Shown here piece after piece: positions 2,650 through 41,177 of a DNA stretch of 64,000 nt. The notes beneath the pieces were generated by a model. It did not search any database. It was not told where the DNA came from and saw nothing but the letters and a program-made list of their open reading frames with translations. The stretch is from an uncultured Gammaproteobacteria bacterium (GTDB taxonomy: Bacteria > Pseudomonadota > Gammaproteobacteria > SZUA-140). Within the stretch, counting starts at the first letter, position 1; every line of letters begins with the position of its first letter. The DNA lies in assembly GCA_947258425.1 (NCBI GenBank), contig CAMYIG010000001.1, positions 866-64,865 of the forward strand. The letters are read 5' to 3'. Position numbers and translations under genes: made by a program.

Positions 2650-3849
2650 TTAAAAATCGGGTTCGTTTTCTTTCACCAGCTCACGTTGCAATTCGTTTTC
2701 AGCATCTGCATCATCCAGACATTTTGAGATAACACTCAAGCCATCATCCTGCTCTTGCAGATTTTGCAATCCTCCCTCAAGAATGCGGGCATTGAGCCCT
2801 TGCTGTGCCATTAAAAACGCCGCTATCGTGCTGCGCTTGCCAATATCACAACAGACTACATACTCTTTACTCTTATCAAGAATGGATGCCGCCTTCCACA
2901 ACGTCGCCAGCGGCAAGTTGATACTGCCTCGCAGGCTCATTTTTTCAAATGCCGAATGGATTCGAACATCCAGTAACACCGCGCCCTCATCCTGCATCAT
3001 CAACATCTGCTCATATGACACCCGTTTGATGTAAGGGGTTACCAGCAGTGTCATAAACTCACTCTTGGGAATACGCACCAGTGCGCCATCTTCCAGCATT
3101 GTCACGGTGCTACTGTGCGGGGTATCGCCAATCAACGCACTCTCGCCAAATCCGCGCCCAATACCCAGTTCCGCCAGGCGGCTCTTTTTATCGGTTCCCT
3201 TAATAGAGCGGGTCACCACGCAGCTACCCTTTGTAATCACATAATAAAAATCACCCTCATCGCCTTCTTTCACCACGGCTTCACCCGCTTTTACGCAGAT
3301 CTCTTCTAAACGACGGGTCAACACCTGCACATGCGGACTTGGCAGGCGGAAAAAAAGTGGGGAATTTAACACCCACTCAATGCGTGCCGATCTTGAACGA
3401 TTATCTTTACTGCTCTCCATCCGATCTGTTTTATTAACAGCGACCATCGGTGTCGTTTTATTCAGCTTATAGAGCAGCTCAGTCGCCACGGAAAGCAGTG
3501 TCACACTACTCCTGGCCAATGCCGTCACCTCTCGGGGCTTGCTATCTGCGACTGCCTCCAACGCCTCATTACTGCCCGCCTTGATAGTAATCGCGGGATG
3601 CCCTTCCGCAATCAATGCAATTTGACCGGAGAGTAAAAAGACACTCTTACCATCCATATCCCCTTGATTGAAAATACGTCGCCCCGGTGGCAAGCGCTCA
3701 ACCGTGGCTTCATTCGCGATCGATTCCAGCATTTCAGCCGTAAAAGCAGTAAAAGGCTCAAATACGCTGAGATCAACGGTTTCAGGGATTTGATTTTTAT
3801 CTGGAGTTTTCAGGGGCTGCACAACTGCCTCACCGCTCATATTGACCAT
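2650..3849 (-). CDS. Two cyclic-nucleotide-binding (CAP-family) domains fused to a C-terminal rhodanese domain
   Basis: Two cNMP-binding-like segments (FNQGDMDGKSVFLLSGQIALI.. and VVKEGDEGDFYYVITKGSCVV..). A C-terminal rhodanese-type active-site loop YVVCCDIGKRSTIAAFLMAQQG carries the Cys. Confidence 0.65.
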   Translation of the reverse strand: MVNMSGEAVVQPLKTPDKNQIPETVDLSVFEPFTAFTAEMLESIANEATVERLPPGRRIFNQGDMDGKSVFLLSGQIALIAEGHPAITIKAGSNEALEAVADSKPREVTALARSSVTLLSVATELLYKLNKTTPMVAVNKTDRMESSKDNRSRSARIEWVLNSPLFFRLPSPHVQVLTRRLEEICVKAGEAVVKEGDEGDFYYVITKGSCVVTRSIKGTDKKSRLAELGIGRGFGESALIGDTPHSSTVTMLEDGALVRIPKSEFMTLLVTPYIKRVSYEQMLMMQDEGAVLLDVRIHSAFEKMSLRGSINLPLATLWKAASILDKSKEYVVCCDIGKRSTIAAFLMAQQGLNARILEGGLQNLQEQDDGLSVISKCLDDADAENELQRELVKENEPDF

Positions 3850-10886: not shown

Positions 10887-11537
10887 ATGATTAAGGCGCT
10901 TTTTCCCTCACAAGTTGTCACCGTCACGGCAACGCCTGCCATGTGGGATGGCAAACTCTACCCCGAAGAGGCCGCTTTCATCCAGAAAGCGGTCATTAAA
11001 CGGAGACGCGAATTCACTGCTGGTAGACTATGTGCAAAAGCGGCGTTAAAAGCATTGGGGGTCACCGGCTTTCCAGTGCTGTCAGGGGGAGAGCGTGAAC
11101 CACTCTGGCCACCCGGCATCACCGGTAGCATCTCCCATTGCGATGACTATTGCGGAGTCGCACTGGCGCGTCAAGCAACGCTCACAAGCATTGGGCTAGA
11201 CATTGAAACCATTAGACCGTTAGACGACGACCTCGAAGCGATGATCTGCACACCGCAGGAAATAACACGCGCTAACCTATCTCCACCACCCTCAGGCAGC
11301 AATTGGCAAAAATTTATATTCAGTGCCAAAGAGTCTGTCTATAAATCACTGTTTCCAGTCACGCGAATTTACCTGGATTTTCAAGACCTCGACATAACCT
11401 TCGACAGTGACAGGTTGCAATTTTCAGCCACTCTGCTCACCCAGCTTCCAACAGAATATAACCTGCCAGACACCCTGACTGGCCACTTCAGGTACAACGA
11501 AAGTCACATCTTTACCGGAATTTCACTATCCCAATAA
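10887..11537 (+). CDS. 4'-phosphopantetheinyl transferase (Sfp/EntD type)
   Basis: EFTAGRLCAKAA, GSISHCDDY, GLDIETI and FSAKESVYK motifs of EntD/Sfp PPTases. It is adjacent to the NRPS genes. Confidence 0.85.
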   Translation: MIKALFPSQVVTVTATPAMWDGKLYPEEAAFIQKAVIKRRREFTAGRLCAKAALKALGVTGFPVLSGGEREPLWPPGITGSISHCDDYCGVALARQATLTSIGLDIETIRPLDDDLEAMICTPQEITRANLSPPPSGSNWQKFIFSAKESVYKSLFPVTRIYLDFQDLDITFDSDRLQFSATLLTQLPTEYNLPDTLTGHFRYNESHIFTGISLSQ

Positions 11538-11539
11538 AC

Positions 11540-12142
11540 CTAATATTTACCCAGAATAAGCCGCGCCTCACCCAGTAACATTGAGGGGTCATCCGCTGAT
11601 ACCGCTTTATAGACAGCCATTACATCCACATAATAAGTATTCCCAATCCCCCCTGAGCATGGCGGCAAATAACCGCCTACATCACCGCGATCGCTTCGGT
11701 GAAGTGCCTCAACATAAACGCCTTCCGGCAGGGCAGTGGTCTCAGCCGGAACAGAAGGGAACACAATGGAAGTCGTATCATTCGCCAGCGACATTCCTAT
11801 AACGCCATGGCCACCATTCAGCATCGGCTCGTAAGTTAAATCCCCAAATGCGAGCAGCACAGCATTTGCCTGTAATGGAATGTCAGAAATTAAGAGTGAA
11901 GGACTAGCCCCGCTGCCACCAAAATTGCGGCACTGCTGACCGTCTGGCACCGAGACCCCATCCCATTCTGAATCTGTGAAAGCGACCGCCAGTTGTGCGA
12001 CCTGTTCAGCTGGCGGGTAGGCACTCAATGGCAACTCAGGTTTGGCATCACGTTTAACGTAGAAAATAATGCCGACAAGCAGCCCTATAAAAATGATCGT
12101 GGACAGCAGGTATATCAGTTTATATGACTTATTAATATGCAT
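11540..12142 (-). CDS. Hypothetical membrane-anchored protein (N-terminal TM, periplasmic domain)
   Basis: 200-aa ORF with an N-terminal hydrophobic helix. I found no recognisable motif. It converges on the PPTase gene with a 2-nt gap. Confidence 0.4.
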   Translation of the reverse strand: MHINKSYKLIYLLSTIIFIGLLVGIIFYVKRDAKPELPLSAYPPAEQVAQLAVAFTDSEWDGVSVPDGQQCRNFGGSGASPSLLISDIPLQANAVLLAFGDLTYEPMLNGGHGVIGMSLANDTTSIVFPSVPAETTALPEGVYVEALHRSDRGDVGGYLPPCSGGIGNTYYVDVMAVYKAVSADDPSMLLGEARLILGKY

Positions 12143-12169
12143 TTAACCAACCCGGGGAGCTCTCAAACC

Positions 12170-13009
12170 TTAGTCTCTATTTAATTCGCGCGCATAAGCT
12201 TGCGCCATCCAGCCACTAATAGTCTCAATTAACTTTTCTTTATCTTTTCTCAGGATATAGGTGTGGTCTGATTCCGGAAAATAATTAACCTGTAGCTGGT
12301 CATTAAAATTCACGGCGCTGAACATATCCTTAAATTGTCCGGCATAATTATAGTCCTCATGGCCGCCACTGTAGACATACAACAGGTTTACTTTGCGCTC
12401 AACCAACTCGCGCAACTCTGCCTCGGTCTGTTGCTTTGGGGGTAATACCCAGAAGTAATCATCCTGACCTGGTCCATCGTCGACACCATCCCCTGAGGGT
12501 GAAATTAGACGTTTAATTCGGTTAAACCATCCACTCAACGAAAACAGACGGGCGCCATAGCGGCGCATCAGAAATGCAGGGGTACGATATGCGTAGCCGT
12601 CAAGAAAAATGGCACCGACCACTCGAGGGTCAATCACAGCCCCCTTATGCGCATTGGCAGCGCCGGTACATAACCCAAACAGGATGAACTTTTTGACGCC
12701 GTATTTACTCGTAAAGAAATCCATTGCAGCCTGAATATCACCAATGATCTGTTCTTCATAAGCACGCGTATCTTTATGCTTCTGGCTATCACCAATCCCA
12801 GATAGATCGAACCGAAAGGATCGCACACCCTGCACTGCTAAACGACGGGCTAATTCAACATGTAACCTAAAGGGGCCGACTCGATGGAGTAAGCCTGCAT
12901 TGAGCATAATAACGGCAGGCAACGTATCGTTAGCGACGGCCTCATCCACTTCGGTCGCAATGCCAACGAGGTCTTTATCCTGCCCAAAAGTAAATACGCG
13001 CTCCATCAC
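12170..13009 (-). CDS. Alpha/beta hydrolase-fold protein with a Cys nucleophile (candidate XrtA-associated hydrolase 1/2 type; possible acyl/peptidyl transferase)
   Basis: FRFDLSGIGDS loop; nucleophile elbow FILFGLCTGA (GxCxG, Cys where Ser is usual); C-terminal ESDHTY His. Its 4-nt overlap with the upstream gene indicates coupling. Confidence 0.7.
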   Translation of the reverse strand: MMERVFTFGQDKDLVGIATEVDEAVANDTLPAVIMLNAGLLHRVGPFRLHVELARRLAVQGVRSFRFDLSGIGDSQKHKDTRAYEEQIIGDIQAAMDFFTSKYGVKKFILFGLCTGAANAHKGAVIDPRVVGAIFLDGYAYRTPAFLMRRYGARLFSLSGWFNRIKRLISPSGDGVDDGPGQDDYFWVLPPKQQTEAELRELVERKVNLLYVYSGGHEDYNYAGQFKDMFSAVNFNDQLQVNYFPESDHTYILRKDKEKLIETISGWMAQAYARELNRD

Positions 13010-13788
13010 TTAGCACCCTCCGAAAGCATCATCACAATATCCTGCAATAATGTACTGAGTAGTAGTGCTGATTCGAGTTCTGATAACGCATCCCAATTGC
13101 CAGCGTCATCAATCACGCGGTATTCGACATCGGCACTCTGTAAACAATCGTAAAGCGCTTGATACTCGTCTTTAGCATCAGAACCTACTATAAATACCCG
13201 CTTTGCTTTCGCTAAAAAATCTTTTTTCAGATCTAATGCTTCAATCTCAGAACACATTTCCTCAGAAAATGAAAAACCCAACAGTTCATTTTCGCCTTCG
13301 CCCTGCCGAGGTACGCTAAAACGATCAGGGTCAGCCAACATCTGCTGATGCATAGACTTTTGTGACGCGATGTAGTCTCGTCCACTGACCACGGGATCCC
13401 AGAGCACGAGCTCTTCAATATTCAAAGACTCTATTGAGGACGCAATCACAGCCCCCAGGCGCAACCCCACTAATGACACTCGCGTATTGCCCGACAGGCT
13501 CTTTAACTCTTCCACCGCCATCGAGACATCTTCGCAGCTTTGTGTCAGACGCCACTCTTCTGACGAGCCAGATGAATCACCCGTTCCATAGTAATCAAAT
13601 CGAAGCACATGAAAACCGGCCTTCGCCAGCAGGTCGGCCAGGCGATTAAACATTTTAAATGACCGCATGTATTCCTGGCCGAATGGATAGCAAAGCACAA
13701 CACTCGTATCTCGTAAGTCACGAGATCTTGGCGGGTGATAGATGCCAAACAGCTGCTTATTGGAAGCGCCAAAAAAGAATGGATTCAT
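13006..13788 (-). CDS. Alpha/beta hydrolase-fold protein, apparently nucleophile-less (pseudo-hydrolase?)
   Basis: LRFDYYGTGDSSG loop; the expected nucleophile elbow reads SLVGLRLGAV, with Arg in the Ser position; no obvious C-terminal catalytic His. ATGA overlap with the downstream hydrolase gene. Confidence 0.65.
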   Translation of the reverse strand: MNPFFFGASNKQLFGIYHPPRSRDLRDTSVVLCYPFGQEYMRSFKMFNRLADLLAKAGFHVLRFDYYGTGDSSGSSEEWRLTQSCEDVSMAVEELKSLSGNTRVSLVGLRLGAVIASSIESLNIEELVLWDPVVSGRDYIASQKSMHQQMLADPDRFSVPRQGEGENELLGFSFSEEMCSEIEALDLKKDFLAKAKRVFIVGSDAKDEYQALYDCLQSADVEYRVIDDAGNWDALSELESALLLSTLLQDIVMMLSEGAK

Positions 13789-13929
13789 TTTTAAATCTCA
13801 AACGCCAAAAAGAAAGTGAGGTGCCACTTATAAAAACCTAAAATAGCACTCATCATAAAAAACCATTATAAGCATAAATACTGTTATCCCGAAACTGACC
13901 TATCATCAAGCATTCAAAAACAAGCACAT

Positions 13930-16900
13930 CTATTTATTGAGCAACCTATTTTTAATTTTATTAAAAAAACCGGGAGATGCCGCAGCTTTTCGCTCAACGT
14001 TCGCTGACGAATCGACCGATCGTTGTTGTTGCCCCCCTGTGTCCTGTATATCAGGCTTACTGTCCACATCAGGAAGCGAATGCGTTGCCGCAATGGCTCC
14101 CAGCGACTCCATCAATAAAACCCTTGGTGAAATCACAACCGCGGTCTCTTTCCGAATGCGTTCAATCACCTTCATCGACAACAATGAGTGCCCACCCAGA
14201 TCAAAAAAATTATCGTGCACACTCACTCGTTCAATACCCAGTGCTTCACACCACACGGTAGCAAGGTATTTTTCTGTCCCTGTTTCAGGGGAGACATACT
14301 CATCATTTTCATAACTATCACCAAAGGGCGCTGGTAAACGTTTCCGATCTAATTTACCGTTCGGTGTCACCGGAAAACCGTCCATTTCAACGATGTGCTG
14401 AGGCACCATATATTCGGGTAACAGGGCACGCAAGTGCGTCCTTATTTCTGTCACTGTGGCGCCTTCGCCTCGCTTATAAATAAGATAGGCCACCAGGCGA
14501 TGATCACCAGGACGATTTTCCCAGACGTTCACTACAGCTCGCTCAATGGCATCATGTTCGCTGAGCGCAGACTCAATCTCACCCAGCTCTATTCTAAAGC
14601 CTCGCACCTTTACCTGATTATCAATACGTCGCATGTACTCAACATTACCATCATCGTGATAGAACGCGAGGTCACCTGTGCGATAGAGTCGACTATTTTC
14701 ATCAAATGGATTTGGAACAAAACGCTCTGCCGTCAATTCTGGGCGATTCAGATAATCGCGCGCAAGGCCAGCGCCACCAATATAAATCTCACCCGGGACA
14801 CCAACAGGCACAGGAAGGAGATGCTCATCAAGCAGATAAATCTGCGTGTTTTCGATCGGTCGACCGATCAATACTGTTGCCTCATCCGCATCACGTTTCA
14901 CTTGATAACGCATCGACCATACTGTCGTTTCTGTCGGGCCATAGAGATTCCATAACTCATCGCATTTTTCAACAAGTTGGCTTGCCAGTTCACGCGGCAT
15001 TGCTTCACCACCGCATAATACCTTCAGGCCTGATGTGCCCTGCCAATCTGATTCCAGTAGTAAACGCCAGGTAATCGGGGTTGCCTGCATAACAGTGATA
15101 TTTTCACTGGCGATAAGCGCCAGTAGACGGGTGCCATCAGAAGCCGCATCACGACTTGCGATGACCGTTGTAGCACCGGTCGTCAGTGGCAAATAGAGTT
15201 CAAGTACTGCAATATCAAAAGAGATAGTGGTCACAGCAAGCAGACGATCAACTTCTGTCAAACCTGGCGCACGCCGCATCGCACAAAGAAAGTTGACCAC
15301 GGCACGGTGCGGCAGCGTCACTCCCTTGGGCTTTCCGGTTGAACCGGATGTATAAATCACGTAAGCAAGATCATCAGATTGACCTTGCTTTAGCGGGTTT
15401 CGATCATCTTCTGCAGCAATCTTCGACCAGTCACTATCGATAAAGACGGTGCGCCCCGCATAACCCGTCAGACGTTCTTTTAACGCCGCCTGAATCACCA
15501 CTAACGGGGCCTGACTATCGCTCAACATATATGCCAGACGTTCTGTTGGATACGCAGGATCAAGCGGCACGTAAGCGCCCCCTGCTTTCAAAATGCCCAA
15601 CAACCCCACCATCATATCCAGTGAGCGCTCAACACATATGCCGATTAGTTGGCCGGGCTCGACACCTGCTTTAATTAAATAATGCGCTAGCTGGTTTGCT
15701 CGCTTATTTAGTTCGGCATAACTTAAATGCTTATCCTCAAAAACGCATGCGGATTTATCGGGAAAACGTTCAACTTGCGCCTCGAAGAGCTCATGCAGCT
15801 TGCTTTCAGCAGGAAACACTACGTTTGTGTTGTTCCACTCATTAATAATAAGTGACCTCTGCTCATCATCAAGTAACGACAGTGTTGCCAATTTTGCATC
15901 AGGTTGCTCAACAACCCGCATGAGCAGCACCTCAAACAGTTTAACCAAACGTTCAATGGTGTGTGCCTCGAATATATCAGCATTATATGCTAGTGCACCT
16001 GAAATTCCATCCGCGCTATCAGACAACATTAAATCAAGGTCAAAATGAGCAGTACCTCTTTCAAATTGATATTCACTCACTTCCACGCCAGACAAAGGAA
16101 AGTTATCGCACAAGGTTTCATTATGAAGCATAAACATCACCTGAAACATTGAGGTATGATTCAATGCTCGATGATGAGGAATCTTCTCCAGAATACTTTC
16201 GAACGGAAGATCCTGATGCGAAAAACAATCGACAGTAGACTCAGCAACATGCTCGACAATATCTCTAAACGTTGAGTCTGATGAAAACTCTGTACGCATC
16301 ACCAGATTATTAGAAAAATCCCCGAACATACTATCTAACTCTGGTCGGCTGCGGACCGTCGGTGACATACCCGTTAAAATATCTTCCTGGTTAGTATAGC
16401 GATACAGCAGACACTGGAATGCAGATAACAGCGACATAAATAAAGTCGAACCTAACGTTCCGCTTAATATTTTAAGTTGCTGGGAAAGCGTCTTCGGCAA
16501 TAAAAACCGATGGGTCCTACCCTTAAATGACATCACTCTTGGCCGCGGATGATCAGTCGGTAGATCAAGCACCGTGTTCGCATCCTGTAGATAGGCTTTC
16601 CAGTACTCCAGCTGGTTATTCACCTCATTAGACGCCAGCCAGTACTTTTCCCATAATGCAAAGTCACGGTACTGCGCAATGAAATTATCACCAGCCCCAT
16701 CGCCTACAGGGTTAGAGCCATCCGTTTTATGCGCGTTATAAGTAGTACTTATCTCGTTAACAAGTAACCGTACAGAAAGACCATCCATTGCGAAATGATT
16801 CGTTGTCATGATGAACACATGCTCATCTTCCGCCAACTGAATAACCAACACCCGTAAGTTAATATCATTGGTAAGATCAAACGGCGTACTAATTTCAGCA

Positions 16901-17325
16901 TTCACCGTTTCGAGCAGTTGACGTTCTTGCGCCTCAGAGGAGATAGCCTTCAAATCATCAACGACCATGCTAAACAGCGTCGATGGCAACAACTTCTGAT
17001 AAAGTTCATCCTCGCCCTCTAAACAGGCAGTTCGTAACACTTCATGACGTTGTACTACCTGCTGAAGACTTTTCTCGAGAATTGTAAGATCTAACTCACC
17101 CTTGAGTCGCACTATAAAAGATTCATTATAAGCAGAGCTTGCAGGATCCATCTGATAGATAAACCAGAAACGTCGTTGCGCTGATGACAAAGGCACCATT
17201 ACATCTTCAGCAACACGTGGCAGCGGTAATTGTTTCAATCCAATCTCGATGTCATCCAGCATTACGTCAAATAATTCGAGCTGATCTGAAGAGAGCGCAT
17301 CCAGCGCTTGATATACATCCTTCAT
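13930..17325 (-). CDS. NRPS module C-A-T with predicted Gly specificity; no TE domain
   Basis: C-domain core TNHFAMDGLS (HHxxxDG variant). A-domain cores LSYAELN.., YVIYTSGSTGKPKGV, NLYGPTETT, YRTGDL, GRIDNQVKVRGFRIELGEIE, NGKLDRK. Stachelhaus positions read by eye against GrsA give D-I-L-Q-L-G-L-V-W-K, close to the Gly code DILQLGLIWK. PCP FFDLGGHSL. A ~60-aa Ser/Gln-rich tail follows, with no thioesterase. ATGA overlap with the upstream NRPS gene. Confidence 0.9.
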   Translation of the reverse strand: MKDVYQALDALSSDQLELFDVMLDDIEIGLKQLPLPRVAEDVMVPLSSAQRRFWFIYQMDPASSAYNESFIVRLKGELDLTILEKSLQQVVQRHEVLRTACLEGEDELYQKLLPSTLFSMVVDDLKAISSEAQERQLLETVNAEISTPFDLTNDINLRVLVIQLAEDEHVFIMTTNHFAMDGLSVRLLVNEISTTYNAHKTDGSNPVGDGAGDNFIAQYRDFALWEKYWLASNEVNNQLEYWKAYLQDANTVLDLPTDHPRPRVMSFKGRTHRFLLPKTLSQQLKILSGTLGSTLFMSLLSAFQCLLYRYTNQEDILTGMSPTVRSRPELDSMFGDFSNNLVMRTEFSSDSTFRDIVEHVAESTVDCFSHQDLPFESILEKIPHHRALNHTSMFQVMFMLHNETLCDNFPLSGVEVSEYQFERGTAHFDLDLMLSDSADGISGALAYNADIFEAHTIERLVKLFEVLLMRVVEQPDAKLATLSLLDDEQRSLIINEWNNTNVVFPAESKLHELFEAQVERFPDKSACVFEDKHLSYAELNKRANQLAHYLIKAGVEPGQLIGICVERSLDMMVGLLGILKAGGAYVPLDPAYPTERLAYMLSDSQAPLVVIQAALKERLTGYAGRTVFIDSDWSKIAAEDDRNPLKQGQSDDLAYVIYTSGSTGKPKGVTLPHRAVVNFLCAMRRAPGLTEVDRLLAVTTISFDIAVLELYLPLTTGATTVIASRDAASDGTRLLALIASENITVMQATPITWRLLLESDWQGTSGLKVLCGGEAMPRELASQLVEKCDELWNLYGPTETTVWSMRYQVKRDADEATVLIGRPIENTQIYLLDEHLLPVPVGVPGEIYIGGAGLARDYLNRPELTAERFVPNPFDENSRLYRTGDLAFYHDDGNVEYMRRIDNQVKVRGFRIELGEIESALSEHDAIERAVVNVWENRPGDHRLVAYLIYKRGEGATVTEIRTHLRALLPEYMVPQHIVEMDGFPVTPNGKLDRKRLPAPFGDSYENDEYVSPETGTEKYLATVWCEALGIERVSVHDNFFDLGGHSLLSMKVIERIRKETAVVISPRVLLMESLGAIAATHSLPDVDSKPDIQDTGGQQQRSVDSSANVERKAAASPGFFNKIKNRLLNK

Positions 17326-20300
17326 TTCACGACTCCTTTTTGCTCAACTAAACTGCGCGCGCTCAGTTGGTCACTCACTTCCCCTTTCGACAACTGTTTA
17401 ATCCGTTCAATCAGCCCTATCACACGCGAGTTAACATCCTCTTTAATCGCTACATTATTTTCACCATTCCGATATATTGCGCCACCCAATAGTGAGTGCA
17501 CAAAATAATGCCGCTCTTCAACATCAAACAACGCTCTAACCTTGTCAAAGTTTGCACCACCAATCTGACAAACAGCCAAATCGTGCTCACGCGCAGATTC
17601 ATCAATAAGGTGTGCGATGATCCCTGTTTCGAGTTTAGCCAGATAAGTAGAATACTTACCATAAGATGGCGCAACGGCACCAAGATCAGTGACAAAAAAT
17701 AGTGAAAATGCAGCTTCATCATAGATAGGAGTATTAACATACGGGACATGAATCGCGCGACTGATCTGCGCATCCTTTGTTAACGTGACCAAACGATGTT
17801 CAATGGGATGATAATAATATGTGCCCGCAGGAATGCCTTCGATTCTTCCTGGTTTAACATGCAGATAAACCTGCGTAGCGTAAAGCCCACCAGGGGAGGA
17901 ATAAAGATACTTTGGTTTACCATCCACCTCTATCTGATAAAAACATGACAGAAAATCACTAAACTGATCAAAAGGGATACACTCCAGTGAAAAACGTCGA
18001 TGACTAAAACGGTTCGCATATTTTTTCCTGAACGCTTCATCATCCACTGGTTTTTTGAGTTGTAAAAACTCTTTGCCTTCATCATTTTTTCGTATACCGG
18101 GCTGCGAATTCTTAAATGCCTCTCGCTCCGCGGGGTCGCGTAACTGCTGATATGAGGCAATCAGTGCTTTGACGCCCGAAAGTTCGCCTTCATCCTCGAC
18201 CGTTTTTTCCTTGTTGTCCTGCGCGCTATTGCTACGACAATAATCAGCAATGGCATTGACACTCTGAAGACGAAATATCTCATCCATACGCGGCCGAAAA
18301 CCAAACATCTTCTCCAGTTGATTACCAATCTTCACCATATCAAGCGAATTGGCACCCATTGATATCAGGTTCGCTTCATTCGACAGGTTATCCATTGATA
18401 ACAGCTCACAGATCATCGCATTCAACTGCGTAACAATCTCAGAATTATTAGCGGAGAGTGCGCTCTCTGAAGGACTGTCCTGCGGCTCCGGAAGTGATTT
18501 TCGATCCACTTTTCCGTTACGTGTCAGTGGCAGCTCATCCAGCGTTATAAACATGGCAGGCACCATGTAGTCTGGAAGTCTGCTAGCGAGATGTTCACGC
18601 AATTTATTTTCATCGATGGCATATCCCGGCGCCTTAACGAGATAAGCCAGCAGTCGCTGTTTTCCCGTCTGCGCAACCGTTACAACAGCGCTTATCACTG
18701 ACTCATGCTGTTGCAGTGCAGCCTCTACTTCACCACACTCAATCCGCTGCCCCTGAATCTTTATCTGAAAATCGGTACGGCCGACAAATTGAATATTGCC
18801 ATCGGGGAGGTAACGTCCAAGATCGCCAGTACGGTAAATCCGTTCACCAGTCTCCGGATGTTTTACAAATTTTTCAGCGGTTTTCTGTTCGTCCTGCCAG
18901 TACCCCATCGCAACGCCGATGCCGGCGACACACATCTCACCAGCCACCCAGTCAGGACACGGCGCAAGCGCCTCATCAAGAATATAATAGCGAGTATTCG
19001 CGATCGGCTTTCCGTATGGGATGCTTTTCCACGTGGGGTCAATCTGCTCAACGGGATACCAGATATTCCAGAGTGTCGTCTCCGTCGGCCCACCCACACT
19101 CACCAGTTGCGCACCTGTTTCTTTTTTAAGCCGCGCTGGCAACCCCAGTGGAATCCAGTCCCCCCCCAGAAATGCAGTCCGTAGACTATCGGGCGCGGTA
19201 CCGGGGTGACTCTCTACGTAGCACAGCAGCATATCCATCATTGCCGGTACAGAATTCCAGATGGTGGGCCTAAACTTCTGCATCATATCCACCCAATGAG
19301 CCGGGTCTCGACGCTCTTCTGGATCGGGCATCACGATTGAGCCGCCAGCACCCAGCATGCCAAACATGTCATAAATCGACATGTCATGATGCAGTGCAGT
19401 GACCGCTAATACACGGTCATCCGAACCCACATTAAAACAGCGGTTGGTTTCAACGATGGCATTCACCACGCCTCGATGGTTTAACATCACCCCTTTCGGT
19501 GTTCCGGTCGAACCAGAGGTATAGATGACATAAGCAAGATCATCTGGGGTCTGCAAATGAGCTAATGGCCCATCATCATATTCAGCGATATCATCGCTAT
19601 CCACACATAGCAGGGTTAAACCTTCAGGCCAGTTAATTTTATCAACCAACCACGACTGCGTTAATACTAGTTCAACGCCACTATTTGCTAACAACTTGCA
19701 TAAGCGCTCGCTCGGCTGCAAGGCATCCATTGGCGCATAGGCAGCACCCGACTGCAGCACACCATAGGCCGCAACCGCTTGCTCCCATCCTTTATCCATT
19801 ACAATCGCGACCAGCTTATTCGGCATGGCGTTCAGTTCACGTAAGCGTCTTCCCCAGCGGTTTGCTAACCCCAATAACTCTCTATAATTTAATGTTCGTT
19901 GAGTGGTAATCACGGCATCACTATCACCGGCTGTTTCAGCATGCGCAATAAACAGGTCTTGCAGCAGCCCTTGTGGCACATCGCGCTGATTATCATTGAC
20001 CTGTGCTCGACGTATTTTCTGCGACTCAGGCAGTAATCTCGTCGTAATCTCAAGCCAGCTCGCCTGCCATGCAGATTGATCAGCGGCTAGCCACTCCAGT
20101 AGCTGAATATAGGCATGTCCCATATCCTCCTGCAGCCCATCCGGGAAAAGCTCGCTGACATAGTCCCAGTCAACACCTAAGACACCCTTATATTCATAAA
20201 TATGATTATCAAGCCAGACCTGCGGCGTCTGATTAACGGCAAAAGTGACATTACCAATCAATCTTGCCGCATTAACGGTATACGCACTCGTGCCATCGGG

Positions 20301-21503
20301 GGCCTGTGGTGCACCGGTAAACACCACCGGTTTCAGACTCTCAGAACCACTCTTACCCTGCGTTGAAAGCTCTCTCAAAATATCTACGCCAGTAAAATAG
20401 TTATGATCCAGGTCATTCCATAACTGCTGCTGCACCACTTTCGCCTCATCGAGAAAATGGGCCTTGTCACCAATATCGATATCCAGCAGGCTAAATGAAG
20501 CGGCCTCACCGACAATGTTGTTGACCTGAGGGTCGAGTGGAAAACGATTAAACTGAGGGATATTCAGACAGAAATTTCGACTTTGACTCCACATCGCAAT
20601 CACATAAGCGTATGCCGTTAGCAAAACCACAATGGGGGTGACACCACTTTGATTGCAGTGCTGTTTAATACTGTTCCAGCTAGTTGCGCCCAGTTTAAGG
20701 CCTAGCCGGGTAAAGCGTCCCTCGTCAACTTCCTGAGGTGTTTTGGCAAGCGGCAGATCTGGTGCTGCAGACATGCGATCAATGCGTTGCTTCCAGTAAT
20801 CGGCATCTGCTTTAAATTTACTTGATTTTTTTAACGCGCGCTCAGCAAATACATAATCTCTAAATGTCAGATTAAGCGGGGGCAATGGCTCATCAGGACG
20901 ATGATAAAGCTGCGCCCATTCGGTGAAAATCACCGTCAAACTCCAGCCATCTACAATCAGCGCATCGAAACCGATATGCAGCCGTAACAGTCCATCTCTC
21001 AATTGTGCCGCAGTAATGGTAAACAGTGGCCACTGGTCTGAAGGTAGCACCTGATGTGAAATATTGTATCGCAGCTCCGCCAACTTCTTCTCGCGCGCAC
21101 CTTCATCGTGCTGCGTAAGGTCGACATAATCTATTTTATAGTCGGGTGTCTCCTCTAAAATCCGCTGATCACCATCGCGACTGATCACAACCCGCATCAT
21201 TTCATGCCGCACTATAAGCTTACAAAACGCCTCATTTAAACGCGCATAGTCAAGTTCATCTTCAATTTCATGATAAGCATAGCCCGCGACTTTACCCATC
21301 TCAAATGCGCCACTGCGTCCAATCCAGTACGCCTGCTGAAGTTCAGTCAACGGAAAAGGATCATAACGCTGGGCAGGGTTCGCCGTGATTTTATCAGATG
21401 CGATGTCAATCTTTTCAGCCGCCTGCTTCTGCGCAAGCTTCTTGATTAATAAAGCTCGCTTTTCAGGAGTAAGCCCTTCTAGCCGTTTTTTAAGGTCTGT
21501 CAT
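17322..21503 (-). CDS. NRPS module Cy-A-T-Ox (heterocyclisation, Cys-like adenylation, PCP, C-terminal FMN oxidase; thiazole-forming)
   Basis: Cy1 FPLTELQQAYWIGR; Cy2 RHEMMRVV..DGDQ; the Cy signature DALIVDGWS (DxxxxD) replaces HHxxxDG. A-domain cores YVIYTSGSTGTPKGV, GGPTETT, YRTGDL, GRTDFQIKIQGQRIECGEVE, NGKVDRK. Specificity residues ~D-M-Y-N-F-G-V-L-W-K resemble the Cys code DLYNLSLIWK. PCP LISMGANSL. The C-terminal ~285 aa carry YLYSSPGGLYATQVY, a McbC/SagB-like nitroreductase-fold oxidase signature, arranged as in BlmIII. The basic N-terminal helix KKRLEGLTPEKRALLIKKLAQK is a possible docking element. Confidence 0.9.
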   Translation of the reverse strand: MTDLKKRLEGLTPEKRALLIKKLAQKQAAEKIDIASDKITANPAQRYDPFPLTELQQAYWIGRSGAFEMGKVAGYAYHEIEDELDYARLNEAFCKLIVRHEMMRVVISRDGDQRILEETPDYKIDYVDLTQHDEGAREKKLAELRYNISHQVLPSDQWPLFTITAAQLRDGLLRLHIGFDALIVDGWSLTVIFTEWAQLYHRPDEPLPPLNLTFRDYVFAERALKKSSKFKADADYWKQRIDRMSAAPDLPLAKTPQEVDEGRFTRLGLKLGATSWNSIKQHCNQSGVTPIVVLLTAYAYVIAMWSQSRNFCLNIPQFNRFPLDPQVNNIVGEAASFSLLDIDIGDKAHFLDEAKVVQQQLWNDLDHNYFTGVDILRELSTQGKSGSESLKPVVFTGAPQAPDGTSAYTVNAARLIGNVTFAVNQTPQVWLDNHIYEYKGVLGVDWDYVSELFPDGLQEDMGHAYIQLLEWLAADQSAWQASWLEITTRLLPESQKIRRAQVNDNQRDVPQGLLQDLFIAHAETAGDSDAVITTQRTLNYRELLGLANRWGRRLRELNAMPNKLVAIVMDKGWEQAVAAYGVLQSGAAYAPMDALQPSERLCKLLANSGVELVLTQSWLVDKINWPEGLTLLCVDSDDIAEYDDGPLAHLQTPDDLAYVIYTSGSTGTPKGVMLNHRGVVNAIVETNRCFNVGSDDRVLAVTALHHDMSIYDMFGMLGAGGSIVMPDPEERRDPAHWVDMMQKFRPTIWNSVPAMMDMLLCYVESHPGTAPDSLRTAFLGGDWIPLGLPARLKKETGAQLVSVGGPTETTLWNIWYPVEQIDPTWKSIPYGKPIANTRYYILDEALAPCPDWVAGEMCVAGIGVAMGYWQDEQKTAEKFVKHPETGERIYRTGDLGRYLPDGNIQFVGRTDFQIKIQGQRIECGEVEAALQQHESVISAVVTVAQTGKQRLLAYLVKAPGYAIDENKLREHLASRLPDYMVPAMFITLDELPLTRNGKVDRKSLPEPQDSPSESALSANNSEIVTQLNAMICELLSMDNLSNEANLISMGANSLDMVKIGNQLEKMFGFRPRMDEIFRLQSVNAIADYCRSNSAQDNKEKTVEDEGELSGVKALIASYQQLRDPAEREAFKNSQPGIRKNDEGKEFLQLKKPVDDEAFRKKYANRFSHRRFSLECIPFDQFSDFLSCFYQIEVDGKPKYLYSSPGGLYATQVYLHVKPGRIEGIPAGTYYYHPIEHRLVTLTKDAQISRAIHVPYVNTPIYDEAAFSLFFVTDLGAVAPSYGKYSTYLAKLETGIIAHLIDESAREHDLAVCQIGGANFDKVRALFDVEERHYFVHSLLGGAIYRNGENNVAIKEDVNSRVIGLIERIKQLSKGEVSDQLSARSLVEQKGVVK

Positions 21504-21641: not shown

Positions 21642-24600
21642 TCATTCGTCTTCAAGCTCACCCAATAGCGCAAGCAACTCATCTTCGTTTACATTCTCCA
21701 GCATCATCTGTTCAATCTTGCTGGAAAAATCGACCAATCGAGGCGAAAGAAAGATCGCTTGAAGTGGAATATCAATCGCAAAGTCCTGTCGGATGCGTGT
21801 AATCAACTGCACCGCGATCAACGAATGCCCGCCAATCTCGAAGAAATTATCGTACAACCCCACCTGCTTGAGCCCCAGTAACGCCTGTAAAATAGTAGCG
21901 ACCTGAATCTCAACTTCGCTAGCAGGTGCGACATATTCTGCCTGAGTATCAATATTCCCTTGCTCCGGCACTGGGAGTTTTTTACGATTAATTTTTCCAT
22001 TCGGTAATAATGGCAATCCCGCTAGCACGACGTAATTTACGGGCACCATAAATTCAGGTAAATGTTGTCCCAGATAGTTGCGTAGCGCATTGATATTGAT
22101 GTCAGTGCCTGTGTCTGGCACCACATACGCAACAAGCTTTTTATTCCCGGGCTCATCTTCTCGCAGTAGCACAAGCGCGTCATTCACTTCGGTATTCTCT
22201 AACAGAAGCTTCTCGATCTCACCCAGCTCAATCCGATAGCCATGTAGCTTGACCTGATGGTCGATGCGCCCCATGAACTCCAGCCGCCCATCACGACCCA
22301 TGCAGACCAGGTCGCCCGTTCGATACATACGGTCATTTAAATCACCACTCACACTGTTTTTTACAAACTTTTCAGCAGTGAGCTCGGGGCGATTCAGATA
22401 ACCCCGTACCACGCCGTCACCGGCAATTACCAGTTCACCCGGCACACCCAGCGGCTGAAGTTGCATATTGTTATCCAGCACATAGGTCTGTGTATTCGCA
22501 ATCGGGGAGCCCAATGGAATATCTGCGTCTGCCTCATGTAAATGATACGTGGTTGACCAGATCGTCGTCTCAGTCGGCCCGTACATATTCGTCACTTGAC
22601 CTTTCACCAATGAACGCAGCTTTACTGCCAACTGACTCGAAAAGGCTTCACCGCCCACCATCATATGAGACAAGCATCCCAGTGCGTGATGCATCTGCTG
22701 GTCTGATGCCAGCATATTGGCCATCGTTGGCGTACATTGAAAATGCGTGACGTTGTGTCGCTCGATAAGTGCAGCGATGGAATAATCCTTATCCGCCCCA
22801 TCAGACTGCGGCGGGTTAGCCGCCTCCTTCACCTGGCTTAGATAATGGAGGTGGGCCAGTACTTTTTCGGTCTCGATGCCAAAATCGATCAGACAACCGA
22901 TCTCATCCACCCCTATTTCCTTGAGTTGATCTGCACGTTCAACGCATCGTTCAACATTCCCAAAGAGCCCGCTGTGGTTATAATAGCGATCAAACGCGAA
23001 GGCCAGCAGGCTATCTCTATCCTCATCAGAAATATTATTAAAAAACTCATCCATGGTCTGCTCTGTACCCTCGGATACCTGCTTCCACGCCGGGCTATGC
23101 CACGCGGCCGCTTTCACCAGAGAAACTGCACTTTCCAGATAGTCCATCATCGGCTGCTGTGCAACATCACGCACCTGCGCCTCATCATCGCCGATGAAGG
23201 TGTGTAGCATTAATGTGACTTGCCCATCACCTGCATGACCGGCCTCTTTCCAGGCGCTACGATAGAGCCGAATATTCTCTGCCACCTTTTCAATATCCTG
23301 TCCGAGCAGGTGCGTCAGCACATGTGCACCAATTGATCCAGCCTGTCGGAAGGTGTCAGGATTCACCGCAACCGTTACCCAAATTGGTAACTTTTCCTGA
23401 ATAGGTCTAGGGTAGGTGCGGACTTCAACATCGCCTTTCGGCCCCGCAAACGTGACAGCCTCACCTTTCCATAATTGCTGGATAGTCTCAACGGAATCAA
23501 ACATGATCTCTTTTGCGCGCGCATGATTCTCAGGCTTGATCACAAAATCATTCGGCTGCCAGCCGGGCGCAATCGAAAGCCCCGCACGGCCATTGGAAAG
23601 GTTATCCACCACCGACCACTCTTCTGCGATGCGAATAGGGCTATGCAGTGGCACCACACAACTGCCCGCACGAATACCGATGTTTTGCGTAGTGGCCGCC
23701 AGTGCGGCACCGATGACTGAGGGGTTAGGGTACAGTCCGCCAAAGGCACCGAAATGTCGCTCAGGTGTCCATAGCGCTTCGAAGCCATTTTTGTCGGCGT
23801 ATTTAGCGCTTTCGAGCAGTAACTTATACTTATCTGCCTCGCGAGATGCCTCGTCTTTTACAAAATTCCAGTAAAAAAGACTAAAGGCAATCGGCTGAGC
23901 GGGGTATCGTGTCGCCACTTCCCCAGCCTTCAGGTCATCACCGGCGTAGAGCACCAGTTTAAACCCTCGACAGAGACTCCAGAAAATCTCAAGCACGGAG
24001 ATATCAAACGATATACTGGTCACAGCCAACCACACACCCGGGGAATCATGCGCAATGCGCTCATCCATGCCTGCGAAGAAATTCACCACATTACGGTGTT
24101 CGACCATCACCCCTTTGGGACGCCCGGTCGAGCCCGAAGTATATATCACATAAGCCAGACTCGATGACGCGCACGGGATTTCAAGATTATTATCGCTCTC
24201 GACATCGATTCGACTTCGCTCAAGATCAACCTGCAACAACTTTTCACCGGGCAGATAATTTGCGTAATCAGACTGGGTAACTACCAACGCCAGCTCTGCG
24301 TCATCGGCCATATAAACCAAACGATCTTTGGGATAAGTGGGATCCAGTGGCACATAGGCCGCGCCTGTTTTCCACGTTGCCAATAGCGCGATCACCATAT
24401 CAAAGGAACGATCCAACATCACACCGACCAGATCATCTACACCCACGCCATGTTTTACCAGATAGTGCGCCAGCTGATTTGCGCGAGCATTCAACTCATG
24501 ATAACTGAGGCTGTCATTGTGAAATGCCAGCGCGGATGTATCCGGTGTAGACACTACTTGTTGTTCAAACAGCTGAAATACACATCGATTTTCAGGGTAT

Positions 24601-27600
24601 GCAGTGGCAGTACCCGTGGCTATTTTTAATATGGCCTGTTGCTCTTCTCTCGGTAAAATCGGCACACTCGCTACCGGCGTATTGAGATCTTCAACCATGA
24701 CCTCCAGCACTTTTAGATAGTGCGCCAGCATACTTTCCATACGCGCTTGCGAGAAAAGGTCGGTGCAATATTCAAGTACCGCCTCCAGTCCAGAGGGACG
24801 CTCCCACATATAAAGGGTCATGTCATATTTTGAAGTACCACTATGAGTGTCCAGCTGTATCGTCCGCATGCCGGGAAGATTCATCACCGATTCATGCTCA
24901 AGCGCATCAAAAATAAACATCACCTGAAAAACCGGTGCATAACGTAAATCACGCTCTGGATTGAGCGCCTCAACCAATTTATCGAATGGCAATCCCTGAT
25001 GCGCAAAATCTGCAATGGTCGTCTTACGCACGCGGGCGATCAACTCTCTCAGTGAAACATCGCCTGATAGATCACAACATAAAGGGAGTGAGTTCATAAA
25101 CAGTCCGAGCATCGCTTCGGTCTCGAGCGGCTCGCGGTTCGCGACCGCAGTACCGACCACAAAATTCTCCTGTGATGAGTAGCGGTGGAGCAGTAATTGA
25201 TAGGCCGCCAACAGCAGCATAAATAGACTGGAACGCTCCTGTTGCGCAATGATATTAAGTCGCTGATGTAGCGCAGACGGTATCTTCAGGGTCACAGAAC
25301 TGCCATTAAATTGCTGCACGGACGAGCGTGGGAAATCAGTTGGTAACTCCAGTACCGGCGGCATCTGCTTTAACCGAGGCAGCCAGTAATCAATCTCCGC
25401 CTGAAGACGATCATCGGCCATATAAGTACTTTGCCAGGCAGTATAGTCAGCGTAATCGGCTGAGAGCTGAGGTAATTGCGGTTCAACGCCACTCACCATC
25501 GCACCATATACCTGCTCGAGCTCGCTTGCCAGCAGACGCACTGACCAGCCGTCAAACACGATGTGATGGATCACAAACGTCATCACATATTTTGATGGTG
25601 CCAGTTTGATAATATTGCAGCGCCACAACGGTCCCTGTTCGATATCGAACAGAGTGTGCGCCTCATTTGTGATCAACTTATCTATTTCCGCCTGCGGATC
25701 TGACGCCTGACTCAAGTCATGCATGAATACCGGCAAGTCGACCTGACCCGCTATCACCTGTGTCGGCGCGCCCCCTTTCACTGAAAACGTGGTACGCATT
25801 GAAGCGTGGCGCTTAACGATTACCGCCATCGCTTGTTTAAAGAGCTCGGGATCAAAATCACCATCGATCTTAAATGCATAAGGGATGTTATAGAGTGCGC
25901 CCACCTGCTCCATTTGCTCAAAAAACCAGATGCGACTCTGCATAAATGAAAGCGGGATATCGCCAGCATGTTCTTTTTTGTGTAGCACTGGTTGTGTCAC
26001 GGCCACATCCGTTACTGCCGATGACGAGATATATTTCGCAAGTTCAGCAATGGTGGGGGAGTTAAAGAGTGCAGTAATAGAAAGCTGCACACCGAACTCA
26101 CGCCGCAACCGGGCGACCATCTGCGCGGCCAGCAGGGAGTGGCCACCGGCATGAAAAAAATTAGCGTTCACACCTACTCTCTCTACACCCAAAAGGGCCT
26201 GCCATATCGCTGCGATCCTGGTTTCTGTATCGCCTGTCGGTGCAACATAATCACGATCTTCGAACAGGTCCGCGTACCGAGGATGGGGTAGCGCCTTTTT
26301 ATCCACCTTGCCATTCGCCGTTAAAGGAATCTCCGCAACAAAGACAAAATGCTGTGGAACCATATGGACAGGCAGACCATTGGCGACATAATCACGTAGT
26401 GCATCGACCTGTAGGCTGTCAGACTTTTTAACCACATACGCCACCAGGCGCTGGTCACCCACACCCAATTCAATGACATTCAATGCAACCTGCTTAACCT
26501 CGGGGTACGCAATGAGAAGCGATTCGATCTCACCAAGTTCTATTCTAAAGCCGCGCAATTGCACCTGGTCGTCAATTCGCCCTAGGTATTCCAGTTCATT
26601 ATTGGAGAGGCGGCGCGCTAAATCGCCAGTACGATACAGTCGGATGACAGTGCCGTTTTCTAACGTGTGGTTAATAAAACGTTCTGCGGTCAAGTCAGGC
26701 CGATTCAAATAGCCCTTCGATAGACCATCGCCGGCAACATACAGCTCCCCTTTCTGCCCATCGATAACAGGCTTCATCGCGTCATCAAAAAGATAGAGTT
26801 TCAGGTCTGGAATGGCCCGGCCAATCAGACTCCCCTTCGGGTGATCCACATCATCACGAGAAATGGGACGATACGTCACGTGCACGGTTGTTTCGGTGAT
26901 ACCGTACATATTAATCAATTGCGGGGCGTTGTCTCCGTGACGGGAAATCCACGGTTTTAAAGCGGCCAGGTTGAGCGCTTCACCGCCGAAGATCACATAA
27001 CGTAACGCCAGTGTATCTGCTGTGTGTCGCTCTTCATCCACCAGCTGTAGCTGCTGGAATGCTGAGGGGGTTTGATTCAGGACGGTGACCCCTTGCGATA
27101 TCAGCAGGGTATAAAACAATTCCGGGGTGCGTGCTGTTTCCGCTGACACAATCACCAGGCTGCCACCGTAGCTCAGCGCGCCCCAAATCTCCCACACAGA
27201 AAAATCAAAGGCATATGAGTGAAACAGGGTCCAGACATCATCCACACCAAAATCAAACCAGTGGTTAGTGGAATCAAAAAGCCGGGATACATTTTTATGA
27301 GTTACCTGCACTCCTTTGGGTGCCCCGGTAGAGCCCGAGGTATAGATGACATAGGCAAGGTGCTCGTCAGTCACCGCTACAGCAGGATTTTCTACTGTCG
27401 ATGAACCCTTCTCCATCGCATCAATCAATAAAATTTTAGCCGAACAGGCGGGTAAATTTTCGACCAGCGTCTGCTGCGTTACCAGTACAGCAGGTTTGGC
27501 ATCATTCAGGGTGTAGGCAATACGGGAAGCGGGGTAATTCGGGTCAACCGGCACATAGGCAGCGCCTGCCTTTAAAATACCCAAAATACCGATCACTGTA

Positions 27601-40535: not shown

Positions 40536-41177
40536 TCACCCTTTCAATAATTCCGAGACTGTCACTGACTGCAGCCCACTCGCCGCGAGCTGATCTAATA
40601 ATGATTTGAGTGCCAATGGGGTATATGGTGTCTTATCGTGCAAAAGAGCAATATCACCAGCGATTAGTGGATGTTGCTCAAAAAAATCCGTAATCTCATC
40701 AGCAGAGGTTACTTTATAGTCCTCTGGATCCACATTCCATAATATGGCTTTCTGCCTTTTAGCTAAAATATACCGAAGTAATCCCAATGTAATCACCCCT
40801 TTAGGCGGCCGAAAAAGTGACCGGCTCTCAGGCGCCTGGTCGTCAGACCTAAGTAGCTCCCACACATCATCAAGTTCATCGCTTATCGCATGGTAGCCCA
40901 ATAAGCTGAACTCGGGGTGCGTCATAGAATGGTTACCTAATTCATGGCCTCGTGCTTCAATCATTTTCGTTATTTCAGGATATTTCTTAACCTGCTCTCC
41001 CACTACGAAAAATGTTGCCTTCATACCCGCCTCATCCAGCACATCCAGCACCTGTTCTGTATAGGGGTGGAATGGACCGTCATCAAAGGTCAGCGCGACC
41101 TTTTCAGCACCTGTTGTTGAACGGCAAACAAGAAAATGAGACAAGATAACTTCTTTTACCCATTTCTTAAGGTTCAT
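40536..41177 (-). CDS. Polysaccharide deacetylase (NodB/CE4 family)
   Basis: VALTFDDGPF (motif 1), HELGNHSMTHP (motif 2). Probable start MNLKKW at 41177; the longer ORF reaching 41249 would overlap the upstream GT by 83 nt. Confidence 0.85.
   Translation of the reverse strand: MNLKKWVKEVILSHFLVCRSTTGAEKVALTFDDGPFHPYTEQVLDVLDEAGMKATFFVVGEQVKKYPEITKMIEARGHELGNHSMTHPEFSLLGYHAISDELDDVWELLRSDDQAPESRSLFRPPKGVITLGLLRYILAKRQKAILWNVDPEDYKVTSADEITDFFEQHPLIAGDIALLHDKTPYTPLALKSLLDQLAASGLQSVTVSELLKG

Follow-up and report, generated by a model that had tools for sequence, protein, structure and literature searches.

A predicted two-protein release module for a thioesterase-less peptide synthetase line within an exosortase A exopolysaccharide locus

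The system considered here is a nonribosomal peptide synthetase (NRPS) operon from an uncultured gammaproteobacterium of the SZUA-140 lineage, contained in a 64,000-nucleotide stretch of DNA (the window) of contig CAMYIG010000001.1. Its core is a line of three synthetase proteins without any release domain, directly followed by two small alpha/beta-fold proteins: h2 (260 aa; 13006-13788, minus strand) and h1 (278/279 aa, with an alpha/beta hydrolase fold; 12170-13009, minus strand). Read 5' to 3' on the minus strand, the gene order is methyltransferase, NRPS 1, NRPS 2, NRPS 3, h2, h1 and a 200-aa open reading frame (ORF). On the strength of comparative sequence analysis, we identify the h2/h1 pair with good confidence as the off-loading device of this line. 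Taken together with its genomic surroundings, the pair probably off-loads the chain and passes it to an acceptor that would belong to a polysaccharide pathway. An earlier, sequence-only reading of this DNA had pointed to the pair; beyond it, we find that one member is a pseudo-enzyme, that the two proteins belong to the lineage of the exosortase-A-associated hydrolases 1 and 2, and that the NRPS lies within an exosortase locus.

The evidence that carries this proposal comes from gene order and gene fusion. A scan with one genome per species recovered relatives in 265 genomes, and the counts given here cover the best 80 of them. Among these, h2 and then h1 form a tandem in 75 of 80, and a carrier domain stands directly upstream of the pair in 35, either as part of a separate protein (25 genomes) or fused to h2 (10 genomes). 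The separate upstream proteins are of condensation-adenylation-thiolation (C-A-T) or A-T architecture, and those of the C-A-T type measure about 1050-1130 aa, with no room for a thioesterase (TE) domain. The fused forms are C-A-T-h2 or A-T-h2 proteins (loci L019, L025, L035, L040, L047, L059, L065, L068, L075 and L077); fusions of h2 to h1 are seen in L027, L089 (Shinella), L090 (Azospirillum), P0247, P0281, P0345 and P0364; and one protein of 1199 aa, P0343, joins all the parts in a single A-T-h2-h1 chain, in which the h2 part (AVRAG) keeps an Arg discussed below and the h1 part reads GLCSG. All these fusions keep the order carrier, h2, h1; hence, the thioester on the last carrier would be the substrate of the pair, and h2 would stand between that carrier and h1. 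We regard the carrier-h2-h1 fusions as the strongest evidence for such a placement of its action. Metagenomic contigs with the closest relatives repeat the series C-A-T, h2, h1 and phosphopantetheinyl transferase (PPTase) behind assorted NRPS and polyketide synthase (PKS) lines. The terminal A domain is of the Gly type in about 27 of 36 loci, the rest being of the Ser type, the Asp/Asn type and, in one case, the Cys type. The sequence-only reading had argued that release must take place in trans, with the pair as prime candidate; its standing as a conserved partner of TE-less terminal carriers in many phyla, fused to them in some, bears this out.

The terminal synthetase in the window, NRPS 3 (13930-17325, minus strand; 1131 aa), comprises by Pfam a Condensation domain (residues 43-492), AMP-binding (514-859), AMP-binding_C (916-991) and PP-binding (1020-1079). 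The Stachelhaus code of its A domain is DILQLGLVWK, next to DILQLGLIWK, which we take to be the canonical code for glycine. No thioesterase (PF00975), thioester-reductase (R), or extra or terminal C domain is detected by Pfam in any of the three NRPS proteins, and the same is true of the other large ORFs of the window to which Pfam and/or NCBIfam scans were applied, those covered by NCBIfam alone all having confident non-TE assignments. Neither the NRPS proteins nor h1 or h2 match PF00975 at E<=0.01. The claim that the last module is C-A(Gly)-T without TE, R or terminal C domain, and that none of the three proteins has one, is therefore upheld. The same reading had described a low-complexity tail of ~60 aa after the peptidyl carrier protein (PCP) domain: the tail is indeed short, at 52 residues, but is more than low-complexity sequence, being a polar linker that ends in a basic motif.

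Two ways in which a release function might have escaped that reading can be set aside. A cryptic release domain in the tail of NRPS 3 is rejected, as the 52 residues after the PCP match no family; a TE gene hidden past the contig edge is rejected, as the end of the operon, marked by h1, the 200-aa ORF and a convergent PPTase gene, is visible within the window. We also reject a decayed or misassembled cluster: the layout of TE-less C-A-T, h2 and h1, with or without the PPTase, recurs in dozens of genomes, and a profile of h1 retrieves 2736 clusters at E<=1e-30 among 1.84 billion representatives, which argues for a widespread device. As had been noted from the sequence, the pair is translationally coupled: the TGA stop of h2 (13008-13006) overlaps the start of h1, be it GTG at 13009-13007 or ATG at 13006-13004. 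A promoter and terminator scan of 11300-14100 yielded nothing in the 141-bp gap between NRPS 3 and h2, its results being no better than those from shuffled sequences.

Both proteins have Pfam matches to Hydrolase_4 and Abhydrolase_1/6, with AF2 models of pLDDT 87 (h1) and 89 (h2), and for either protein the homologues at 40-60% identity number well over a thousand. The nucleophile elbow of h1, G-L-C-T-G, presents Cys113 (12668-12670), accompanied by His248 and Asp136. All of the close homologues (121/121) keep the Cys and the His, and in alignments with solved hydrolases these two fall on the nucleophile Ser and the catalytic His; across the fetched loci the Cys is present in 86/86 sequences, His248 in 85/86 and Asp/Glu136 in 85/86. 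The corresponding elbow of h2, G-L-R-L-G, is occupied by Arg110 (13459-13461), whose counterpart in solved hydrolases is the Ser of GLSMGG, and a Trp stands at the expected position of the catalytic His. This Arg is invariant in 121/121 homologues, which have no conserved His at all, and it is found in every elbow listed across the loci (77 of 84 sequences itemised), including 10/10 of the fused copies. Given an Arg elbow without His in h2 and a Cys-His-Asp set in h1, h2 is in all likelihood a pseudo-enzyme and h1 the sole plausible catalyst.

This division of labor sets the pair apart from the type I TE (PF00975), with which it shares the alpha/beta hydrolase fold and the position in the line, h2 being fused after the last carrier in 10 genomes. 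Unlike such a TE, neither protein matches PF00975, the domain that follows the last carrier has G-x-R-x-G in place of the Ser elbow and no conserved or catalytic His, and catalysis would fall to a second protein that uses Cys. By family profiles, the nearest matches are TIGR03100 for h1 (81.4 bits against a cutoff of 168.45; residues 7-161) and TIGR03101 for h2 (103.9 bits against 202.75; residues 3-143 only). These families, named 'hydrolase 1/2, exosortase A system-associated', are hypothetical equivalogs without an assigned function. The present system resembles them in having an unlike alpha/beta-fold pair, a genome with an XrtA system and a carrier-protein loading system alongside; as in the gene context of TIGR03100, a TIGR03101-type protein (h2) lies immediately upstream of h1, with overlapping stop and start codons. 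It differs in that its donor is a four-module NRPS and not a ligase, an acyl carrier protein (ACP) and a decarboxylase: the ligase (TIGR03098) and the pyridoxal phosphate-dependent decarboxylase (TIGR03099) of the exosortase A cassette are both absent from the window, where the NRPS A domains reach 235 bits against a TIGR03098 cutoff of 592. Since the score tests fall short and h2 has none of the defining features of a TE, the system is, as far as such comparisons reach, a putative form of trans-acting release that is related to the catalogued TIGR03100 and TIGR03101 families and stands outside them.

The carrier from which the chain would be taken also has distinctive features. The terminal PCP domain (residues 1020-1079; 14089-14268, minus strand; phosphopantetheine on Ser1047) scores 104 bits with a hidden Markov model (HMM) trained on the terminal T domains of 36 proteins outside this genome, whereas the internal T domains of the window score 83, 71 and 15 bits and those of related loci at most 88. 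The model thus separates the last T domain from the internal ones, and the partner carrier is therefore a recognizable subtype common to the carriers that precede h2. The tail beyond it (13933-14088, minus strand) consists of the polar linker and an amphipathic basic motif, GFFNKIKNRLLNK, at 13933-13971. The terminal NRPS proteins of at least eight other loci (L001, L005, L009, L012, L013, L014, L016 and L060) end in a similar motif, examples being GLFGKLKNPFFKKK, GFLKKLFMKLNK, GVLGRLKSKLFKD and SLLKRVKSSLFG. The helical hydrophobic moment of the tail peaks in its last 11-12 residues, and the values for the motif, 0.43-0.55, are not below those computed identically for MinD motifs; membrane-targeting helices of this kind are known from MinD and FtsA. 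The motif could be such a membrane-targeting helix or, equally, a docking peptide for h2, the latter because fused T-h2 proteins lack it.

A release mechanism can be proposed along the following lines. The assembly line, with the predicted order Thr, Gly (possibly alpha-hydroxylated), Cys (as thiazole) and Gly, would end on the dedicated carrier subtype, to be unloaded by the two-protein alpha/beta module directly downstream. As a catalytically dead adaptor at the place of the thioesterase, h2 would bind both the terminal carrier and h1. The peptidyl-glycyl chain would then move from the phosphopantetheine arm to Cys113 of h1, where it would form a new thioester, this acyl-Cys being a presumed intermediate, and His248 and Asp136 would activate the incoming nucleophile. 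The acceptor would belong to the surrounding exopolysaccharide pathway of the XrtA/PEP-CTERM system, on the inner face of the membrane; a lipid-linked sugar unit could offer a free hydroxyl or amine for this purpose, such as an amine bared by a deacetylase. Neither h1 nor h2 has a signal peptide; hence, the release step is likely to be cytoplasmic and possibly located at the membrane.

The choice of acceptor is suggested by the location of the NRPS island inside an XrtA/PEP-CTERM locus, by the polysaccharide loci in which relatives of the pair occur and by the lack of signal peptides. On the left the island is flanked by the XrtA/PEP-CTERM system-associated ATPase (TIGR03015; 8334-9332, minus strand; 363 bits against a cutoff of 324.5) and on the right by the exopolysaccharide locus proper (34904-63927, minus strand), as assigned by Pfam and NCBIfam families; it is this flanking on both sides that places the island within the locus. 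The right flank encodes glycosyltransferases, a flippase, a Wzy-like polymerase/ligase, an outer-membrane protein, a Tyr autokinase, a chain-length determinant (522 bits), an export protein (238), PrsT (595), PrsR (684), PrsK (764) and a priming glycosyltransferase, with all of the scores given above their cutoffs. It also includes an exosortase A-EpsI fusion (57340-58929, minus strand; XrtA, 234 bits against a cutoff of 208) and a PEP-CTERM protein (54407-54970, plus strand) with the tail VPEPATIAMMGLGLIGLGFMARRR. Thus, exosortase A, a PEP-CTERM protein, PrsK, PrsR and PrsT, and the exopolysaccharide export genes are all present. Three polysaccharide deacetylases (38381-39331, 40536-41249 and 48177-49205, all minus strand) would bare the amines of amino sugars, which are candidate acceptors for acyl or peptidyl transfer.

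Beyond this genome, 40 of the 80 genomes have at least one XrtA-type gene for export, chain length or kinase no more than 10 kb from the pair. In the Kangiellaceae (L065, L068) a single C-A(Ser)-T-h2 protein and h1 stand beside genes for the priming glycosyltransferase, export, chain length and kinase; in Acidobacteria (L035, L075) an A-T-h2 protein and h1 adjoin XrtA and PrsT; and in Variovorax (L087) genes for export, a kinase and a sugar transferase come directly after the NRPS, PPTase and pair. The pair of Rhodanobacter, Dyella and Luteibacter (L031, L034, L041 and L048-L086; e.g. L052, 9213-10825) is placed within the polysaccharide locus, between the gene for the XrtA-type outer-membrane protein and galE, with no NRPS, ligase or carrier within 10 kb and, in many, with a GNAT/FemAB-like gene ~5 kb downstream; like h1 and h2 of the window, the Rhodanobacteraceae pairs fall below the TIGR03100 and TIGR03101 cutoffs. 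In two loci of the NRPS/PKS type, L001 (13073-14212) and L003 (5681-6850), a membrane protein of the Acyl_transf_3 family adjoins the pair, separating it from a second FAAL-PKS gene, and is a possible partner for acyl transfer across the membrane.

That the chain goes to a polysaccharide-pathway acceptor instead of water is a more tentative proposal than off-loading itself, and one that we hold to be quite possible, the acceptor being deduced from the gene neighborhood. The sequence-only reading had expected transfer to an acceptor, with an amino sugar, a protein or a lipid as examples: what speaks for it is circumstantial, namely the complete XrtA locus, the relatives in polysaccharide loci and a Cys in place of Ser. 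In a hydrolytic alternative, the pair would be a two-subunit hydrolytic thioesterase that liberates a diffusible peptide acid, serving as a signal, surfactant or metal binder, and the polysaccharide neighbors would reflect co-regulation or joint use in biofilms instead of a covalent link. The fold, and the esterases and lipases that are its closest solved relatives, are compatible with hydrolysis, and genetic links between PEP-CTERM/exosortase loci and free N-acyl amino acids are on record in the literature. However, the exchange of Ser for Cys, unusual in a plain thioesterase, is invariant over thousands of clusters; the pair recurs in polysaccharide loci of unrelated lineages, even without an NRPS nearby; and a dedicated dead subunit would be hard to rationalize. 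We therefore consider hydrolytic release unlikely, while giving it appreciable weight.

Several observations weigh against off-loading to a polysaccharide-pathway acceptor. Dienelactone hydrolase is a Cys-type alpha/beta hydrolase that hydrolyses, so that the Cys nucleophile is no proof of transfer, and h1 has a weak Pfam match to that very family (DLH). The physical contacts of h2 with the T domain and with h1 are ones that we infer from the fusions. Fold searches of the PDB with h1 and h2 returned generic esterases and lipases only, plus LuxD for h2, and pointed to no specific function. Full membership of TIGR03100 and TIGR03101 is rejected, both scores being about half the curated cutoffs, and our literature search found no paper that gives either hydrolase family a function or biochemistry, and nothing relevant on NRPSs coupled to exosortase-associated hydrolases or on the TIGR accessions. 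Many NRPS-type loci (e.g. L001, L005), among the several of NRPS/PKS type that favor hydrolysis, have no polysaccharide gene within the 10 kb fetched. Lastly, 33 of the 40 genomes with XrtA-type genes near the pair are Rhodanobacteraceae-like and have no carrier protein within 10 kb, and genomes of this type are phylogenetically redundant, which inflates the polysaccharide count.

A different release enzyme could be the GNAT protein (Acetyltransf_6 by Pfam) encoded at 29255-30481 on the plus strand, divergently from the operon. The sequence-only reading had listed it as FemAB-like and as a further candidate: it is a GNAT of the Acetyltransf_6 family at 74 bits, and its FemAB_like match is below threshold (18 bits), with no match to the PEP-CTERM FemAB family. 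In this alternative it would acylate an amine, with the peptidyl- or glycyl-S-carrier as donor, leaving an editing or accessory role to h2 and h1. The GNAT/Fem-type fold and the divergent transcription beside the operon fit such a role; 15 of 80 genomes, with the NRPS-type loci L012 and L017 among them, have a homologue no more than 10 kb from the pair; and canonical XrtA systems contain a FemAB-like protein (TIGR03019). Yet the gene is absent from most of the TE-less NRPS-type loci (L001, L005, L013, L015, L016, L060), which makes a general role of its product in release unlikely; it is never fused to a carrier domain, while h2 and h1 are; and an editing role for the pair is at odds with the lack of the Ser-type signature and of the PF00975 match that mark editing type II thioesterases. 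We consider release by the GNAT protein very improbable, and the h2/h1 pair is retained as the off-loading device.

Free-standing proteins that move aminoacyl groups between carriers offer a further comparison. CmaE and SyrC have an active-site Cys in an alpha/beta fold, and h1, with an invariant Cys113 at its nucleophile elbow, can be likened to them in this respect. Like the type II TE-like LgnA, CmaE (coronamic acid) and SyrC (syringomycin) act in trans, picking up the aminoacyl group of a T domain as a covalent intermediate and handing it on without hydrolysis; CmaE and SyrC do so between T domains (PMC8748450). If h1 were a carrier-to-carrier shuttle of this type, it would deliver the chain to a carrier protein or assembly line encoded elsewhere and release would occur at a distant TE, and a second NRPS or PKS gene does lie beyond the pair in L001, L003, L027, L030 and L043. 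The acceptor of CmaE and SyrC is, however, another carrier domain, and they have no dead partner subunit: six-frame translations of the 64-kb window contain no free-standing carrier protein and only the four T domains of the NRPS, and no second line is there to be fed in the A-T-h2-h1 proteins or in the minimal A-T-h2 plus h1 loci beside XrtA genes. Such a shuttle is, in our estimate, the least probable of these alternatives to off-loading by the pair.

Other known systems share parts of the proposed scheme. In the Dlt pathway (DltA, DltC, DltB, DltD), by which teichoic acids are D-alanylated, an adenylating enzyme charges a carrier protein with an amino acid, which then moves to a polymer of the cell surface (PMC9338922). 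The minimal A-T-h2 and h1 sets beside XrtA genes in the Acidobacteria (L035, L075) recall this arrangement, and DltA is among the family matches of their A domains; the transfer proteins of Dlt are, in contrast, of the MBOAT and SGNH-like types, while the cargo here would be a modified peptide of four residues, transferred by an alpha/beta pair. The polyhydroxyalkanoate (PHA) synthase PhaC has an alpha/beta fold with a G-x-C-x-G lipase box, His and Asp, and its Cys carries an acyl group from a thioester to a hydroxyl. The likeness to h1 is at the level of fold and motif; the donor of PhaC is a CoA thioester, and its chemistry is polymerization. The myristoyl-ACP acyltransferase LuxD (PDB 1tht), to which h2 has weak sequence matches and which ranks 10th among its Foldseek matches, takes an acyl group from a carrier protein; it uses a Ser nucleophile and acts alone, whereas h2 has no nucleophile.

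The Cys signature of h1 is kept at 27-31% identity in Variovorax, Shinella and Azospirillum; the Arg of h2 is kept in Variovorax and Azospirillum, and the h2 half of the Shinella protein has Gly instead. The fused Shinella pair (L089), with the Cys in its h1 half, adjoins an ACP, a near-canonical TIGR03098-like ligase and a TIGR03099-like decarboxylase in a polysaccharide locus. On an Azospirillum brasilense plasmid (L090, NZ_CP059452.1, 2348-9993), a 611-aa h2-h1 fusion follows genes for an ACP, an acyl-CoA dehydrogenase homologue, an amino acid--[ACP] ligase, a DUF1839 protein and a GH2 protein. Such ligases are seryl-tRNA-synthetase-like enzymes, whose carrier-bound product has, to our knowledge, no known fate; the Azospirillum fusion may be the missing downstream step of this orphan family. 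Judged from gene content, what the loci of the pair have in common is an acyl or aminoacyl thioester on a carrier protein, in most cases an aminoacyl or glycine-ended one.

The remainder of the operon agrees with a four-module line. It opens with a class I S-adenosylmethionine-dependent methyltransferase (27883-28617), followed by NRPS 1 (modules 1-2; 21642-27815), with the domains A(Thr)-T-C-A(Gly-like)-T and a luciferase-like monooxygenase (MOx) insert in the second A domain, and NRPS 2 (module 3; 17322-21503), with a heterocyclization (Cy) domain, a Cys-like A domain, a T domain and a nitroreductase-type oxidase (Ox) domain, which would together form a thiazole; all three genes are on the minus strand, and the domains are from Pfam and the A-domain codes. 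In line order the codes are DFWNIGMVHK (Thr), DILQMGMIWK (Gly-like), DMYNFGVLWK (Cys-like) and the terminal DILQLGLVWK. The MOx insert (22902-23876, minus strand; residues 1314-1638 of the NRPS 1 protein) lies between motifs A4 and A5, and an A domain interrupted in this way is also present in the related loci L005, L010, L012, L016, L030 and L043. MtaG and MelG share the arrangement of a MOx within an A domain, and in these the Gly is hydroxylated at its alpha carbon, upon which the chain is cleaved and ends in an amide. In the present line the MOx sits in internal module 2 of 4, so that the product may contain a glycine with an alpha-hydroxy or alpha-methoxy group, or may be cleaved at this residue.

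At its other end, the operon closes with the 200-aa ORF (11540-12142, minus strand), which starts 27 bp downstream of h1 and has a single N-terminal membrane helix. It matches no family of Pfam or NCBIfam, and the related loci lack a counterpart; it may be lineage-specific, or a helper that hands the product to the membrane. Convergent with the operon is an Sfp-type 4'-phosphopantetheinyl transferase (10887-11537, plus strand; Pfam 4PPT_N and ACPS), and the same gene trails the pair in L001, L005, L012, L015, L016 and others.

Further genes of the window are mentioned for completeness. Between the GNAT and the polysaccharide genes lie two genes for secreted proteins: a lipoprotein-like adhesin with four tandem Big_9/cadherin-like ('tandem-95') repeats (30822-32942, plus strand) and a 531-aa protein with only an N-terminal PelN-like stretch (33019-34614, plus strand), neither of which ends in a PEP-CTERM signal. 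The polysaccharide locus also encodes a 611-aa protein (46295-48130, minus strand) that matches an APH-type phosphotransferase at residues 463-527 only. A 399-aa protein with two cyclic-nucleotide-binding domains and a rhodanese domain (2650-3849, minus strand) is apparently unrelated.

A more far-reaching scheme, which we regard as speculative and rather improbable, would connect these parts. NRPSs, or the simpler A-T and ligase-ACP loaders, would build an amine handle, here a peptide that starts with a Thr whose amine is free and ends in Gly; h2 and h1 would graft its C-terminus onto lipid-linked exopolysaccharide; and the grafted amine would be the long-sought nucleophile with which exosortase A attaches PEP-CTERM proteins once their sorting signal is cleaved. 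Gram-negative bacteria would thus have an equivalent of the pentaglycine bridge used by sortase on lipid II, and the scheme would explain the starter without N-acylation, the strong preference for a terminal Gly, the FemAB-like neighbor, the deacetylases and the position of the island in an XrtA locus.

If the assignment of the pair is correct, it represents a release device that is not recognized by genome-mining tools, composed of a dead adaptor and a separate Cys enzyme. This device would be present in thousands of sequence clusters from many phyla; gene clusters with it are at present read as 'no TE, product unknown'. For the exosortase field, it would give a concrete, testable role to two long-catalogued families for which we found no published function, and it points to carrier-bound amino acids and peptides as cargo that may enter the exopolysaccharide/PEP-CTERM pathway.

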